39,226 bases of DNA from Oligoflexales bacterium (GCA_017985985.1 JAGNWK010000019.1:1-39226); one strand, 5' to 3'; shown: positions 25,107-34,459, counted from the first letter of the stretch. The notes: generated by a model from the letters alone, not told the origin. A program made the numbers and translations.

Positions 25107-25227
25107 GGAACCATCCCACAAGTCGTATAGCAAGGCATTGGGGAGCAATCAGTGCAGTTTACTGGATGGTAAATGAGCAGCGCAGCGACGAAAATAACGC
25201 AGCTACACGACTTGTGGGATGGTTCCT
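25107..25227. mobile_element. MITE-like element family 1, copy A (~121 bp, 21-bp terminal inverted repeats)
   Basis: Terminal inverted repeats aggaaccatcccacaagtcgt ... acgacttgtgggatggttcct with an ~80 bp core. Its terminal ..cctag supplies the TAG stop of the adjacent CDS 25226..25726. Confidence 0.7.
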
Positions 25228-25726
25228 AGGCCGTCGACAGCATGCTTTTCAAAAGGAGCCGCTGATAGGTAGAGAGGGTCATAAGCCCTTCGTCCTCAAA
25301 AAGACTGGAGTGCACGCGAGGTCTGGTTAAAACCTGCTGTGGTTCGTAAATGTTTACAAGATCAAATGGCTGCCCCTTTCGCATAAAGACATCCTGATCC
25401 ACAATTTTTTCACTCTGCGAGACTAGCCAACCATGAGGCGATTGTTCAAAAAGCCAGCCGAGCGTATTTCTTGGCCTAAGATAAAAATACCTTCTCGAAA
25501 ACGCAAGCAGTCCAGACTCGTAAAAAAGAGGAGCTGAAGAGTGCTCTCGAGGAAGCTCTTTGAACTGAGTGTAGATGGAGTGTTTCAGCTTCAAAAAAAT
25601 CTTATCTCGCAGCTCTTCATCTATCAGCAGATTGTAGCGAACAGATAATGCCGACGACAAGGGATCACCTGATTTTGAATCTGGCCGCTTCTTCTCAATT
25701 ATAAAATGCCTAAGTCGCTCCAACAT
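25226..25726 (-). CDS. Hypothetical protein (166 aa)
   Basis: ORF with no recognisable domain. Its 3' end abuts or overlaps MITE copy A, so its C-terminus may have been altered by the insertion. Confidence 0.4.
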   Translation of the reverse strand: MLERLRHFIIEKKRPDSKSGDPLSSALSVRYNLLIDEELRDKIFLKLKHSIYTQFKELPREHSSAPLFYESGLLAFSRRYFYLRPRNTLGWLFEQSPHGWLVSQSEKIVDQDVFMRKGQPFDLVNIYEPQQVLTRPRVHSSLFEDEGLMTLSTYQRLLLKSMLSTA

Positions 25727-25792
25727 AAGAATCTTTCATCTTGACAGAGTCTTCGGTTATCCATTAACAATGTCTTCACTTGGGGCACATCA

Positions 25793-25869
25793 TGCGGGAG
25801 TAGCTCAGTTGGCTAGAGCGTCGCGTTGCCATCGCGAAGGTCGAGGGTTCGAGTCCCTTTTCCCGCTCC
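25793..25869 (+). tRNA. tRNA-Gly (anticodon GCC)
   Basis: Cloverleaf: acceptor GCGGGAG/ttCCCGC; D-arm GCTC-AGTTGGCTA-GAGC; anticodon stem TCGCG / loop TTGCCAT / CGCGA; T-arm GAGGG-TTCGAGT-CCCTT; discriminator T; CCA encoded. Near-identical to E. coli glyV. Confidence 0.9.
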
Positions 25870-26034
25870 AAATTTTTCAAATACACATCCCCACATAAGG
25901 TGCCATCTCATAAGTCGTCGTCAGTCAGAGCATCGAGAGCATACAGATGCAAGCAGATTGACCACTTATAAGATAGCGCCTTATTCTATTATACCACTGT
26001 CGAATCCTCGTTCGGCAAGATCAGGTAAAAACCA

Positions 26035-26718
26035 ATGACCAGTCTCTTAAAATTAGCGAGTTTTCCCATCGGAAATCTCGCCTGCAATTGCTCCGTTATT
26101 TATTCCAGTCAGACTCGAGAAGCGATCGCCATCGACCCCGGCAATGACGCCGACTCCTTTTTAAAAAAAATAAAAACCCTCGATGTTCAGGTTAAATATC
26201 TCCTACATACCCACGCCCACTTCGATCACATCGGCCACTCTGACATTGTGCGAACAAAGATTGGCGCCCCACTACACCTCCACAAGGATGATCTTTTCTT
26301 GTACAGAGCCCTCCGTGAGCAGGGCCTGTTCTTTGGGCAGCAGGTGGGAGAACCCGGAGAAGTCGATCACTACATAGAAGACGAAGAAGAATATAAGATT
26401 CAAGTCCAAAATCTAGAGATCAAAGATCAAGGACTTCAGACCATCCTCAAAACCATACACACCCCCGGACATACCCCCGGCTCTTGCAGCTTCTATACAG
26501 AACTTTTGGAAGACGGCCCCATGCTCTTCACAGGGGACACTCTTTTTTCTGGGACGATAGGCCGCACAGACCTACCGGGTGGAGACTTCCACCAGCTGAT
26601 ACATTCCATCCAAACCAGAATTCTTAAACTCCCTGAAGAAACCACCTGCATACCAGGCCATGGTGCCCAAACAACACTCTCCAATGAAAAGCGATACAAT
26701 CCTTTCCTCAAAAAATAG
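26035..26718 (+). CDS. MBL-fold hydrolase (glyoxalase II / GloB-like)
   Basis: HTHAHFDHIGH (HxHxDH) and the downstream motifs ..TPGHTPGS.. and ..FTGDTLF.. are typical of hydroxyacylglutathione-hydrolase-like MBL proteins. Confidence 0.75.
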   Translation: MTSLLKLASFPIGNLACNCSVIYSSQTREAIAIDPGNDADSFLKKIKTLDVQVKYLLHTHAHFDHIGHSDIVRTKIGAPLHLHKDDLFLYRALREQGLFFGQQVGEPGEVDHYIEDEEEYKIQVQNLEIKDQGLQTILKTIHTPGHTPGSCSFYTELLEDGPMLFTGDTLFSGTIGRTDLPGGDFHQLIHSIQTRILKLPEETTCIPGHGAQTTLSNEKRYNPFLKK

Positions 26719-26793
26719 TCCATCTCTACTGATGCTATAATAGCAACGAGTCATCACTTGAAAAATTCCAAGTTATAGCAAAAGAAGCAAAGA

Positions 26794-27081
26794 ATGGAAA
26801 ACAGCGTAGAAGGAAAAGAAAAAGGCAATTGTCGATGCCCACATCATAAAATGAAGGGTATTTTCATCGCTCTGGCAGGGTTAGCTTATTTGCTGGGGAA
26901 TCTCGAAATCATTTCCATGCACATGGCTCATAATATTTGGCCTATACTGATCATCCTTTTCGGATTGATGAAGTCCTTCGGTAACAATATTTGCAAATGC
27001 TGCACACCTAGCTCAGCTGGAGGAAAGTGCTGTGACTCCAATAACTGCTCCTGCTCCTGCAAGTGTTGCAAGAAAAGCTAA
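26794..27081 (+). CDS. Small Cys-rich membrane-associated protein (95 aa)
   Basis: N-terminal NCRCPHH, one hydrophobic helix, and a C-terminal tail with 11 Cys in 33 aa (CKCCTPSSAGGKCCDSNNCSCSCKCCKKS). Metallothionein-like or peptide-like, no firm family. Confidence 0.4.
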   Translation: MENSVEGKEKGNCRCPHHKMKGIFIALAGLAYLLGNLEIISMHMAHNIWPILIILFGLMKSFGNNICKCCTPSSAGGKCCDSNNCSCSCKCCKKS

Positions 27082-32675: not shown

Positions 32676-32778
32676 CAGTTAAACCTTACATGAAAAGCAA
32701 CGACATCCACCAACTGCAGCTGGCCTCTAATGTCATTCGGTTAAGGCAAGACACACCTCGGCTCCTCTCCAACCTGTC

Positions 32779-32920
32779 TAGGTATTACGATTCGTCATTG
32801 CGAGAAGCCGCAGGCGACGAAGCAATCTTGCCTTTACACGGAGATTGCTTCGCTTCGCTCGCAATGACGAGATTCTGCGATAACGCAGCTAGACGACTTT
32901 TTGGATGGCTTCCTACCATC
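32779..32920. mobile_element. Chimeric MITE: a family-3 core fused to a degraded family-1 right terminal inverted repeat
   Basis: ccaacctgtctaggtattacgattcgtcattgcgagaagccgcaggcgacgaagcaatct...agattgcttcgcttcgctcgcaatgacga is followed by ..gataacgcagctagacgactttttggatggcttcct, which matches the right end of family 1. A family-2 outer-repeat motif (aatgtcattcggttaagg) sits at 32738-32755. Confidence 0.45.
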
Positions 32921-33650
32921 AATCCACCTCAAGGTCTTTAAAAACTTCTCTATCAAAAACTTCCCCATCTATTGTTTTTTCTTCTACTCCATTCTTACTG
33001 ACACAGTGGCCATACTCTTGAATAAAAGAACCAGCATGCCCACTCGTATGCTGATACCCAAGATTGTGTAAAAACTCGTGAGCTAAAACCCCTGCCCAGT
33101 ACTCTGCATCCATTGAAAATCGATAAGACTTCCCTGGTCCCAGATGATCGGAGTTGAGAGCGACATGAAGGTAATGCCTATCTGGATAAGAAGCTGTAGG
33201 TTCATCATTGTCAAAATAGAGTCCGACATAACCTAAACCGACAGTCTTAGAGTCATCCCAGTACCGTGCAACAAAAGCAAACGACGGGATGAAGACACCG
33301 TGTACAGACATAGGGCTCAGGGCCGAGTATAGCTGTGCTTCAATCAGATCCCTCGACTCTGGTTTGTTTTTTGTAGAGTTGTTAAAAGCACAGTCCAAAA
33401 CCCTTCGATTGAGAGCCCTCTCCACAAAAATCTTCGCCGAATCTTTGATCAGTTTGCTTTCTTCTGCCGAGAACGTGGGGTCCAGACCTAGCTGCAAAGA
33501 CAGAGGGAGCCATCTCCCATAGCATCCCTCAAAAACACCTACAATATGGGCAGAAGCTGCTGGATGACCATCCTCAGGATAGTGATCGACCGATCTTGCT
33601 AGACTCTCTAGAGAGACGATCAAAAGGAACACATAAAACAACTTCAACAT
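32919..33650 (-). CDS. Secreted zinc metalloprotease, metzincin-type
   Basis: Signal peptide. HEFLHNLGYQH is a full HExxHxxGxxH metzincin zinc-binding consensus, located near the C-terminal third. Confidence 0.65.
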   Translation of the reverse strand: MLKLFYVFLLIVSLESLARSVDHYPEDGHPAASAHIVGVFEGCYGRWLPLSLQLGLDPTFSAEESKLIKDSAKIFVERALNRRVLDCAFNNSTKNKPESRDLIEAQLYSALSPMSVHGVFIPSFAFVARYWDDSKTVGLGYVGLYFDNDEPTASYPDRHYLHVALNSDHLGPGKSYRFSMDAEYWAGVLAHEFLHNLGYQHTSGHAGSFIQEYGHCVSKNGVEEKTIDGEVFDREVFKDLEVD

Positions 33651-33676
33651 AACTCATCCTTTCTTGCCTTATTGCA

Positions 33677-33699
33677 GGGAACCAGCTGCGCAGTTTCTC
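33677..33699. repeat. REP-like palindromic element (family 4)
   Basis: gggaaccagctgcgcagtttctc lies in the spacer between the metzincin start and the Hint-protein stop. Confidence 0.5.
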
Positions 33700-33727
33700 T
33701 AGCCCCTCCTTACCCATGTTTGGCGAA

Positions 33728-34459
33728 CTATTTAAATGACTTTACGAGTCCAAGCCGTACATCTATTTCATTTTGAAAAGCTGGATAACTGGCTTGGATC
33801 AGCCAGTCCCCTGAGCGCAGATCATTATTGATAATGAAATGGTCTTTGGCATTCAATGAACTGGCATGAACAACCACGTTCATCAGTCTCCCGACATAAC
33901 CATCAACCTTCTCATGACTAAGCAGCTCAACCGAACGACCCATTCCATCGAGCACGAAAGAGCCGGGATGCAGCTCCTGAGCCGAGACCACTCTCTCATC
34001 CCGAGTCACGAACGTGTGATCAGAGCTGACAAGCAACTCAGAACCATTCGAAAATACCAATTGCCGAACTTGCACAGGTAGAGAGGTGAAGTCTGAAGCC
34101 AAGAGGTTCGTAACCGGACTGCTCACCTGTTCTGAATAAGGTGAAGCCAGCTCCACCCCTAGAGCTAGCTCACCCAAAGTCATGGTCGACTCGAAGTCCG
34201 CAAGTTGAACCCTGGTATCTGGACTTGCACAGCTGCAAGGGCAGAGGCAGTTCCCCCCCGATGGACCAATAACGAGGTAAGGCTTCCCAGCAAGACCGCT
34301 GGAAATACAAAACTTATTCATTTCTGCATCCACAGCACTGCAGTGACCCTGTGGACAAGCTGCATAGGCAAAGGCCAGTTTTGGAAATGAAATAAACGCC
34401 AGAAGAAGACTAAGAGCACGTAGTGAACGCATAGAAGACCCCCTTGTAGCCACTTTCAA
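33728..34459 (-). CDS. Secreted Hint-domain (Hedgehog/intein-like) protein
   Basis: Signal peptide, then a Cys-rich stretch (ACPQGHCSAVD..CLCPCSC). ASPDTRVQLADFESTMTLGELALG and ..SELLVSSDHTFVTRDERVVSAQELHPGSFVL match the bacterial Hint_2 pattern (C-x-x-x-DT-x-V ... TpdHpvLv....A.eL.pGd.l). Confidence 0.5.
   Translation of the reverse strand: MKVATRGSSMRSLRALSLLLAFISFPKLAFAYAACPQGHCSAVDAEMNKFCISSGLAGKPYLVIGPSGGNCLCPCSCASPDTRVQLADFESTMTLGELALGVELASPYSEQVSSPVTNLLASDFTSLPVQVRQLVFSNGSELLVSSDHTFVTRDERVVSAQELHPGSFVLDGMGRSVELLSHEKVDGYVGRLMNVVVHASSLNAKDHFIINNDLRSGDWLIQASYPAFQNEIDVRLGLVKSFK

Follow-up and report, generated by a model that had tools for sequence, protein, structure and literature searches.

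The stretch of DNA analyzed here, referred to as the window, covers 39,226 nucleotides (nt) and is a full contig from the metagenome-assembled genome of an Oligoflexales bacterium (JAGNWK010000019.1; locus tags KA436_045xx to 046xx). Its segment from position 25107 to 34459 carries nine open reading frames (ORFs) and a tRNA-Gly gene, all lying where an initial annotation of the window had placed them. The segment falls into two adjoining but unrelated parts, called unit A (25105 to 28392) and unit B (28399 to 34459), the latter encoded on the minus strand. The genes of interest are all annotated as "hypothetical."

Unit B is a conserved cluster of five genes, and the product of its last gene combines leucine-rich repeats (LRRs) with an N-terminal domain whose modeled structure resembles the MACPF/CDC superfamily (CDC, cholesterol-dependent cytolysin). 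On balance, we lean to the view that the segment is native, consists of these two units, and carries in unit B a protease-associated pore-forming attack system of the perforin/CDC fold. The initial annotation had nominated the segment as a candidate for an undescribed secreted effector or toxin locus, and this idea is supported in the form of a conserved, protease-linked cluster around a MACPF/CDC-fold protein. Its picture of a set of independent effectors does not hold, as five of the nine genes form one conserved Oligoflexia cluster.

Read along the minus strand, the cluster begins with a gene for a secreted Hint-like protein of 243 amino acids (aa) (33728 to 34459; KA436_04640), followed by a secreted 243-aa protein with a metzincin motif (32919 to 33650; KA436_04635), the core cluster member h239, a 239-aa protein with an N-terminal membrane anchor (31956 to 32675), and the predicted lipoprotein h478 of 478 aa with the lipobox LIAC (30505 to 31941). 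The last gene encodes the secreted 661-aa MACPF/CDC-fold and LRR protein (28399 to 30384; KA436_04620). Signal peptides, lipoboxes, and transmembrane (TM) anchors in this study were read by eye from the sequences and not called by a predictor.

The MACPF/CDC-Fold LRR Protein

The 661-aa protein is composed of a MACPF/CDC-like domain (aa 45 to 330; 29395 to 30252, minus strand), assigned from an AlphaFold2 (AF2) model and Foldseek; a helical bundle linker (aa 334 to 480; 28945 to 29385, minus strand), modeled as a block with a predicted local distance difference test (pLDDT) score of about 85 to 96; and an internalin-type LRR domain (aa 481 to 655; 28420 to 28944, minus strand), supported by Pfam LRR_4 (E 6e-24, about aa 480 to 650) and by internalin-type matches in the PDB. 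The LRR domain is presumed to be a target-binding module, and Kelch repeats take its place in one relative (P0023). The description of this protein in the initial annotation as a secreted LRR protein was correct, while its N-terminal domain, which had been called unassignable, can be assigned to the MACPF/CDC fold. The exact 661-aa protein has no database entry, since the deposited version is 654 aa long and starts at Met8.

The N-terminal part (aa 28 to 480) was modeled by AF2 with no templates from an alignment of 25 sequences, which gave a mean pLDDT of 79.6 and a predicted TM-score (pTM) of 0.65. When this model was compared with known structures by Foldseek, 50 of the 50 matches listed belonged to the MACPF/CDC superfamily, the best with an E value of 6e-5 and a probability of 1.00. 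These matches include stonustoxin, PFO, LLO, astrotactin-2, TgPLP1, C8, MPEG-1, Plu-MACPF, and perforin, as well as pleurotolysin B, the Aegerolysin-L pore, a CDC-like protein (CDCL), and the Bacteroides protein 3kk7.

The modeled topology runs from strand beta1 through a helical cluster (aa 88 to 119) to beta2 and, further along the chain, from beta3 through a second helical cluster (aa 195 to 225) to beta4, which is followed by a pair of glycines. In the numbering of the model, the strands (E) and helices (H) are E50-57, H61-92, and E99-120 for the first part and E146-165, H168-198, and E202-211 for the second. The model thus shows the bent, four-stranded antiparallel beta-sheet of the superfamily with its two flanking helical clusters, and the order of strands, helical clusters, and glycine pair matches the layout of the CDC/MACPF fold. 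The two glycines, G239 and G240, lie directly after the modeled beta4 and are invariant in all 25 sequences, and both helical clusters display a raised period-2 hydrophobic moment.

The domain also contains a signature-like stretch, C170-G171-H-G-F-x6-G181-A, with the family form C-G-[HDN]-x-[FY]-x6-G-[AS]. A search of the PDB with the single sequence of the N-terminal domain gave no match, and a profile of 15 sequences gave a single, marginal one (E 0.021) to chain 9uj0_A of the Aegerolysin-L pore. In this alignment, CGxEYVEQIxLGAK (family form CG[HD]x[FY]VEQIxLGA) is placed against the MACPF-signature-like stretch YGDRFIADFIKGG. The F/Y-F/Y element of CDCs and CDCLs has an ambiguous counterpart further upstream, Y135-x-[FY]. 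Collectively, these results suggest that the N-terminal domain is a member of the MACPF/CDC superfamily by fold and a divergent new branch of it. With regard to export, inspection by eye indicates a Cys-Gly lipobox-like N-terminus in about half of the orthologues, a regular expression picked out 6 of 25, and the protein of the window has a signal of the signal peptidase I type and not a lipobox.

Conservation of the Cluster

The first 482 residues of the LRR protein served as the query in a search for homologues, and the contigs of the matches were then compared. There were 22 orthologues of full length (about 650 aa) with 47 to 100% identity, one N-terminal domain fused to Kelch repeats (P0023), and two more distant proteins. 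The cluster of unit B recurs in at least seven other contigs of Oligoflexia/Bdellovibrionota, with different neighbors each time. With the length of each product in aa attached to its name, the window carries Hint243, metz243, h239, h478, and LRR661, where "metz" stands for the metzincin-motif protein, and locus L081 carries Hint239, metz243, h233, h458, and LRR657, its LRR protein being 71% identical to that of the window over the full length and 77% over the N-terminal query. The other loci read Hint258, lipoprotein214, metz224/240, h226, LRR660 (L082/L083); Hint238, lipoprotein203, metz237, h223, LRR652 (L084); Hint241, metz243, h249, x473, x282, LRR650 (the marine loci L085 to L087); Hint261, h176, metz247, LRR648 (L090); and metz242, x278, LRR651, Hint247, h456, h228 (L093). 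At L093, the six cluster genes lie on one strand at 6424 to 12952, their content kept and their order permuted.

Thus, genes for a Hint-like, a metzincin-motif, and a MACPF-LRR protein are present in L081, L082/L083, L084, L085 to L087, L090, and L093. The flanks differ from locus to locus and include pyrF, argG, genes for DUF4423 and alpha-2-macroglobulin (A2M), an old yellow enzyme (OYE) reductase gene, DctPQM, and fatty-acid oxidation genes. Because the genes recur while their neighborhood changes, the core of Hint-like, metzincin-motif, h239, and large-protein genes represents an inherited unit, to which the lipoproteins are variable extras.

A gene for another protease class, either Peptidase_S8 or the trypsin family, takes the place of the metzincin-motif gene in members that are more distant. 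Locus L089 of Bdellovibrionota FG-2 carries Hint-like283, a Peptidase_S8 (690 aa), x215, and MACPF-LRR; L091 carries a Peptidase_S8, x190, and MACPF-Kelch; and a gene of the trypsin family lies three genes downstream of P0025, the weakest homologue (E 4e-4). The linkage of a protease throughout, while its class changes, argues that proteolysis belongs to the function of the system. The homologue at L094 (8001 to 10169) is a 722-aa protein with extra LRRs and no evident signal peptide; it has no Hint or protease neighbors. Genes for a DUF1353 protein, a Mutator-type transposase, and an nSTAND1 NTPase lie next to it, and this copy may have been transferred or may have taken on a different role.

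The spacers between the genes of unit B measure 77, 243, 14, and 120 nt in the window and 24, 8, 25, and 4 nt in L081, and three of the four in the window have received insertions of repetitive extragenic palindromic (REP) elements. One REP element (30396 to 30472), which separates the LRR gene from h478, is one arm of a 71-nt inverted repeat (30402 to 30472 and 31918 to 31988; 87% complementary) that brackets the h478 gene. Because its upstream arm extends over the end of h239 and the start annotated for h478, the true start of h478 may be further downstream. A patchwork (32720 to 32915) of fragments of REP elements and miniature inverted-repeat transposable elements (MITEs) fills the 243 nt from the metzincin-motif gene to h239; the counterpart of this spacer in L081 is the one of 8 nt. 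A scan of the window for promoters gave about as many as in shuffled sequences and a scan for terminators about 2 standard deviations more, and the bounds of an operon were not defined by these scans.

Partner Proteins

The motif HEFLHNLGYQH of the metzincin-motif protein lies at aa 191 to 201 (33048 to 33080), and H191, H195, G198, and H201 are invariant in five aligned sequences of the family. A search of the PDB with the single sequence gave no match, and the family profile produced a match at the level of the motif only (E 0.23). What stands of the original label "metzincin" is the motif; a significant family match and a conserved Met-turn do not accompany it.

The Hint-like protein consists of a signal peptide, a 45-aa module (aa 33 to 76) in which six cysteines are invariant, and a Hint-type domain (about aa 77 to 225) that starts at the invariant Cys77 and is followed by no C-extein. 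Cys77, Thr82, and His148, the last of these block-B-like, are invariant in nine Hint-like sequences. The single sequence gave a weak match (E 0.036), and a profile of the nine sequences matched the Hint-type and bacterial intein-like (BIL) chains 6y75, 6tmm, and 2lwy of the PDB with E values of 2.4e-4 to 3.1e-4, so that the earlier assignment of a Hint domain is borne out with moderate strength. A metagenome scan with an alignment of six Hint sequences returned one contig of 1.7 kb, which gave no usable gene context.

The h239 protein combines its membrane anchor with a conserved C-terminal domain of about 130 aa, and its family is present in L081, L082, L084, L085, and L093 and weakly detected in L090. 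Orthologues of h478 were found in L081 (41% identity) and L093 (24%), and this variable accessory member of the cluster is a candidate immunity or partner protein. Neither the h239 nor the h478 family matched an entry of Pfam, nor did PADLOC and PHROGs scans of these and the other proteins without a family yield a match. Searches of the PDB with h478, as a single sequence and as a profile, gave no match.

Unit A and the OTU Protease

Unit A comprises a 166-aa ORF (25226 to 25726, minus strand; KA436_04595) and, on the plus strand, the tRNA-Gly(GCC) gene (25794 to 25870) and genes for a 227-aa metallo-hydrolase of the metallo-beta-lactamase (MBL) fold (26035 to 26718), a small 95-aa membrane protein (26794 to 27081), and a 321-aa OTU-domain cysteine protease (27288 to 28253; KA436_04615). 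The 166-aa ORF has neither a signal peptide nor a family match. The tRNA gene, a core gene, is the sole tRNA gene of the window, as had been noted. The hydrolase carries the HxHxDH motif and matches Lactamase_B (E 5.8e-27). It had been described as glyoxalase-II-like, which is correct as to the MBL fold and its resemblance to GloB; however, its score of 70.6 bits against the GloB equivalog TIGR03413 falls below the cut-off of 200.8. Because it has no apparent signal peptide, the hydrolase is probably cytoplasmic and ordinary. The 95-aa protein had been listed as a Cys-rich mini-protein. Its C-terminal tail (CKCCTPSSAGGKCCDSNNCSCSCKCCKKS) is indeed Cys-rich, but the protein as a whole is a LiaI/LiaF-like membrane protein with a two-TM region (PF18917, E 1.9e-8, 34.7 bits versus a cut-off of 27). 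The tRNA, the hydrolase, and the LiaI/LiaF-like protein are unremarkable genes, and the statement that nothing in the segment is housekeeping fails for the tRNA and plausibly for the hydrolase.

The OTU protein has a signal-peptide-like stretch (aa 1 to 25), a hydrophobic block of the Gly-zipper type (aa 64 to 160), and the OTU domain (aa 195 to 321) with the catalytic motifs DDGLC203FFHAL and NKH317FF. Its identification as an OTU-like cysteine protease was confirmed, marginally, by 24.3 bits against the PF02338 cut-off of 23.3. The best sequence match in the PDB was 5jze, deposited as an RNA-dependent RNA polymerase (E 6e-5), in which DGxCF and the C-terminal HF are aligned. A weak stretch at aa 162 to 178 resembling a ubiquitin-interacting motif was rejected as such (E 0.091, 13.1 bits versus a cut-off of 21).

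A word-index search for homologues of the OTU protein returned the protein itself only, and when 1.84 billion representatives were searched exhaustively with HMMER, three weak relatives were obtained, of which one from Volvox was rejected as a repeat artefact. Another is P0036 (KA436_04360), included in the P0033 cluster, a paralogue on a second 40-kb contig of the same metagenome-assembled genome. It is 368 aa long, and its OTU domain is 34% identical to that of the window protein; its N-terminus is different and helical, and a signal peptide is not evident. The third, P0035, is a metagenomic OTU protein of 149 aa (Pfam OTU, E 7e-12). The catalytic motifs of the window protein are common to P0036 and P0035. 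With only three relatives, one of them an artefact, the OTU genes are considered lineage-specific. The protease is possibly a deubiquitinase-type effector. Together with the internalin-type LRRs and a collagen-like lipoprotein encoded elsewhere in the window, the OTU genes give only a hint of an interaction with eukaryotes. Such an interaction is plausible because some Oligoflexales (FD111) reportedly prey on the alga Nannochloropsis.

Origin of the Segment

The initial annotation had taken the segment for an accessory island associated with tRNA-Gly. The comparison of GC content and codon usage inside and outside the segment, which had been proposed along with it, revealed no deviation. The GC content is 0.463 in the segment versus 0.447 to its left and 0.469 to its right; the GC content at third codon positions of the genes is 0.39 to 0.52 inside and 0.35 to 0.52 outside; and the codon-usage distances of the segment genes are within the range of the contig. 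The tetranucleotide distance between the segment and the rest is 0.135, and windows of equal size span 0.11 to 0.23. There were no integrase or transposase domains among the ORFs of the window that were scanned. The 3′ end of the tRNA-Gly gene (17 to 25 nt, up to 3 mismatches allowed) occurs once in the window, with no att-like repeat; the tRNA gene lies in the interior of the segment and not at its border; and no tRNA gene was found beside the cluster in the relatives examined. Because the composition is unremarkable and there is neither an integrase nor an att repeat, the segment appears to be native chromosomal DNA and not a foreign island. One lesson for genome scanning is that a gene cluster of effector-like appearance next to a tRNA need not be an island.

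Synteny was examined around the glycyl-tRNA synthetase (GlyRS) gene glyS, which lies at 34670 to 36187 (plus strand) in the window. Compared with 80 genomes of Oligoflexales, Pseudobdellovibrionaceae, and other Bdellovibrionota, the GlyRS of the window shows at most 70% identity, the nearest genomes being at 56 to 70%. Thus, no close relative is at hand. In the comparison of 80 GTDB loci anchored at glyS, none (0 of 80) share the flanks of the window, and neighborhoods are scrambled at 56 to 70% GlyRS identity. The folB gene adjoins glyS in one locus of the 80, L029 of a distant relative, where it (1841 to 2215) is directly upstream of and divergent from glyS (2586 to 4097); in the other loci, glyS adjoins no gene of the left flank of the window.

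Unit A lies between two copies of a MITE in the same orientation, which bracket the first 3.1 kb of the segment, as had been reported. Copy 1 (25105 to 25229; 126 nt) has 27-nt terminal inverted repeats (TAGGAACCATCCCACAAGTCGTATAGC), and its right end provides the stop codon of the 166-aa ORF. Copy 2 (28267 to 28392) is 92% identical to it. A composite mobile unit made by the two direct copies was considered and rejected, as there is no transposase. The segment had also been described as littered with MITE and REP copies. They are indeed denser here (by a rough count, about 1 per kb versus about 0.3 per kb elsewhere on the contig), but the same families occur contig-wide, at 2423, 3364, 4575 to 4695, 16118 to 16209, 36198 to 36312, and 37878 to 38047. 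Two of these sites are tandem REP pairs of the families found in the cluster spacers, intergenic on both sides of a DbpA-type helicase gene: two 57-nt units at 36198 to 36312 and two 73-nt units, 97 nt apart, at 37878 to 38047.

Proposed Function and Alternative Explanations

In the mechanism that we favor for unit B, the large protein would be exported and, in many orthologues, by appearance, anchored to lipid. Its LRR domain (Kelch in one relative) would bind the surface of the target, and the protein would oligomerize after cleavage by the co-encoded secreted protease. The two amphipathic helical clusters would then refold into beta-hairpins to form a beta-barrel pore, as in perforin, C9, the CDCs, and the CDCLs of Bacteroidota. 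The h239 protein and/or the fast-evolving lipoproteins might protect the producer or chaperone the toxin, and the Hint-like protein might process itself at Ser76/Cys77, thereby releasing or transferring its six-Cys N-terminal module. Pore formation, proteolytic activation, immunity, and the nature of the target, either bacterial prey or a eukaryotic host, are what we infer from these data. A bolder version, which we consider improbable, holds that the Hint protein covalently transfers the six-Cys peptide to lipid, envelope, or toxin and in this way arms, anchors, or targets the protease-matured pore former against eukaryotes; with the two orphan OTU proteases, this would identify the uncultured lineage as parasitic or predatory toward eukaryotes.

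Several observations weigh against a protease-activated pore former. The fold assignment depends on a predicted structure of moderate confidence, and the TM-scores from Foldseek are low (0.2 to 0.3) because the superposition covers only about 200 to 350 residues. The Pfam models MACPF (PF01823) and Thiol_cytolysin (PF01289) matched neither the window protein nor 15 family members at E values up to 10. The MACPF signature [YW]-G-[TS]-H-[FY]-x6-G-G is only approximated, and the YGR motif of CDCs and CDCLs is absent as written, the position reading T-C-G-[HDN] with Gly alone shared. Because these sequence models and motifs do not fit, the domain is not placed in MACPF or CDCL as sequence families. 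Some proteins of the MACPF fold are not known to be lytic. The distant homologues at L088 and L094 are without partner genes. The operon organization of unit B is suggested by strand, gene order, and relatives, and REP insertions are present in three of its four spacers. As for the metzincin-motif protein, Reprolysin_3 and Reprolysin_5 of Pfam stay below threshold (E 0.02 to 0.05), and the alignment of five sequences shows no conserved Met-turn downstream of the motif. Furthermore, Glu192 is replaced by Leu in the L082/L083 orthologue (HLFLHNLGYDH; L082 8612 to 9286, L083 6216 to 6938), with the His residues kept. The loss of the catalytic Glu suggests a non-catalytic role in that lineage and, together with the missing Met-turn and family match, implies that proteolysis may not be the conserved role of this protein. 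The AF2 model of the Hint protein, built from six sequences, reached a pLDDT of 38.9 and is unusable.

Some of these points would fit a different function, in which unit B forms a non-lytic complex for surface recognition or adhesion, with the LRR protein as an adhesin on a MACPF/CDC-like scaffold and the other proteins as maturation factors of the envelope. The internalin-like character of the LRR domain, the degenerate CDC/MACPF signatures, the orthologue that has lost the catalytic Glu of its zinc motif, and the presence of astrotactin-2 and 3kk7 among the fold matches of a superfamily whose members are not all known to be lytic would be in line with this explanation. We nevertheless consider it rather unlikely, because the conserved helical clusters with their period-2 amphipathic pattern and the invariant GG hinge are found at the sites expected for pore hairpins, because a protease is linked to the cluster across three classes, as for protease-activated pore formers, and because LRR and Kelch repeats can replace each other as the C-terminal binding module, which is typical of toxins. 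The linkage to a protease of varying class (metzincin-motif, S8, or trypsin) could also be explained if the pore former were directed at the producer itself and triggered by the protease, to serve in abortive infection or programmed lysis in the manner of the gasdermin-protease operons of bacteria. This appears to be the least probable explanation of all, as the proteins of the cluster all have a signal peptide, a lipobox, or a membrane anchor and would act outside the cytoplasm, the cluster has no sensor or NTPase and no PADLOC or PHROGs match, and the LRR/Kelch module suggests an external target.

A horizontally acquired tRNA-Gly island of independent eukaryote-like effectors, inserted between folB/htpX and glyS, is also very unlikely. 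It would account for the tRNA within the segment, the high density of REP and MITE copies, the direct MITEs around 3.1 kb, the near-orphan OTU gene, the adjacency of folB and glyS in one distant relative, and the fact that the neighborhood of the cluster differs in every genome examined. However, the composition and codon usage of the segment, the lack of an integrase, a transposase, and an att repeat, and the internal position of the tRNA all speak against it, as do the ordinary nature of the hydrolase and the tRNA and the absence of tRNA genes by the cluster in relatives. Five of the genes represent a vertically conserved Oligoflexia cluster, whose identities of 47 to 77% track divergence. 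For unit B, the island reading is therefore largely refuted.

Pore formers of the MACPF/CDC superfamily have a central place in the immunity of animals and the virulence of bacteria, and their bacterial diversity is still being mapped. The family described here escapes the Pfam MACPF/CDC models and is annotated only as "hypothetical" or as "LRR protein." It would add a distinct architecture of pore domain, helical bundle, and LRR or Kelch repeats, with fixed partners that include a class-swapping protease and a stand-alone secreted Hint protein. If the proposed mechanism is true, unit B would provide a compact and testable system for studying how pore formers are activated, targeted, and neutralized in the producer, as well as a first molecular handle on the attack of prey or hosts by the poorly known Oligoflexia.

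Other Features of the Contig

Elsewhere, the contig carries chromosomal genes for a DcuA/B transporter, a 5′-nucleotidase, a ferrochelatase, an NfeD/SPFH pair, proline dehydrogenase, an RlmL-type methyltransferase, a multiheme cytochrome, FolB, HtpX, GlyRS, and a DbpA-type helicase. The NfeD/SPFH (Band 7) pair is located at 9500 to 11679, and another SPFH gene lies toward the opposite end, at 38053 to 38937. The most atypical part of the contig is 1 to 10000, with a GC content of 0.37 to 0.43 and a tetranucleotide distance of 0.21 to 0.23; a 326-aa ORF within it (3406 to 4386) is without a family match.

The collagen-like predicted lipoprotein (11788 to 13362, plus strand; Pfam Collagen, E 3.4e-36) is a eukaryote-like surface protein, and a 9-nt tandem array in its gene (12648 to 12782) encodes GIQ repeats. 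A 404-aa protein (13398 to 14612, minus strand) contains a run of about 20 Ser-Pro dipeptides that originate from a (GGTGAT)n array (14296 to 14424), a TM segment, and a Pro-rich C-terminus; a Pfam scan of this protein gave no match.

Comparison with Known Systems

Compared to viral OTU domains, which are found in polymerase chains such as 5jze, the OTU protein of unit A shares the Pfam OTU domain, DGxCFF, and the C-terminal His-aromatic motif. OTU effectors are also found in Chlamydia and Legionella. In contrast to OTU deubiquitinases, the protein of the window has a signal peptide and a Gly-zipper hydrophobic block and nearly no relatives. The Hint-like protein resembles BIL, Hint, and Hedgehog-type domains in its profile match to 2lwy, 6y75, and 6tmm and in Cys77, Thr82, and His148, and it resembles the Hedgehog type in its short N-terminal cargo. 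It differs from them as a stand-alone secreted protein that has no toxin C-extein, carries a 45-aa six-Cys module as cargo, and ends in a C-terminal motif, SGDW(L)xQ, specific to its family.

A literature search did not find a MACPF domain fused to internalin-type LRRs, nor a relevant precedent for MACPF with LRRs in Bdellovibrionota, for Hint with MACPF, or for pore-forming proteins of Oligoflexia. The large protein shares with the cholesterol-dependent cytolysins (PFO, pneumolysin, and the Gram-negative toxin 6nal) the GG pair at the equivalent place after beta4, but it has a helical bundle and LRRs in the position of domain 4 and only about 10% sequence identity. Its similarity to MACPF proteins (perforin, C9, MPEG-1, Plu-MACPF, BT_3439, pleurotolysin B, and the partner of Aegerolysin-L) is apparent in Foldseek probabilities of 0.9 to 1.0, in the signature-like CG[HD]x[FY]-x6-G[AS] aligned to the 9uj0 stretch, in two helical clusters placed as the transmembrane hairpins TMH1 and TMH2, and in modular C-terminal binding domains. 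The differences are the absence of a PF01823 match and the approximate nature of the signature.

Functional characterization of the CDCLs, with which unit B can also be compared, reportedly dates from 2024. The comparison toxins were EaCDCL and BfCDCL (PMC7527733, PMC11169675, PMC11952106). The hallmark of CDCs and CDCLs is an F/Y-F/Y-Xn-YGR motif with a conserved Gly pair downstream (PMC7527733, Evans et al. 2020). The CDCLs of Bacteroidota are lipoproteins with a signal of the SpII type that need proteolytic activation, and a co-encoded small lipoprotein, BcdI, blocks their pores in the producer (PMC11169675). Unit B is similar in its Gram-negative producer, in the lipoprotein-type export signal of many orthologues, in the GG pair after beta4, in a probable operon with small lipoprotein genes (BcdI being the immunity protein in Bacteroides), and in a presumed dependence on a protease. 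It differs in that its protein lacks a PF01289 match and has CG[HDN] instead of YGR, in that each cluster in all loci examined has one MACPF/CDC-like gene versus the long and short pair of CDCLs, and in the helical bundle and LRRs (or Kelch repeats) that form its C-terminal part. Furthermore, the Hint-like protein and h239 are partners without a counterpart among CDCLs, the phylum is Bdellovibrionota, and the producer carries the protease gene within the cluster itself, in contrast to the activation of CDCLs by a protease on the target cell.

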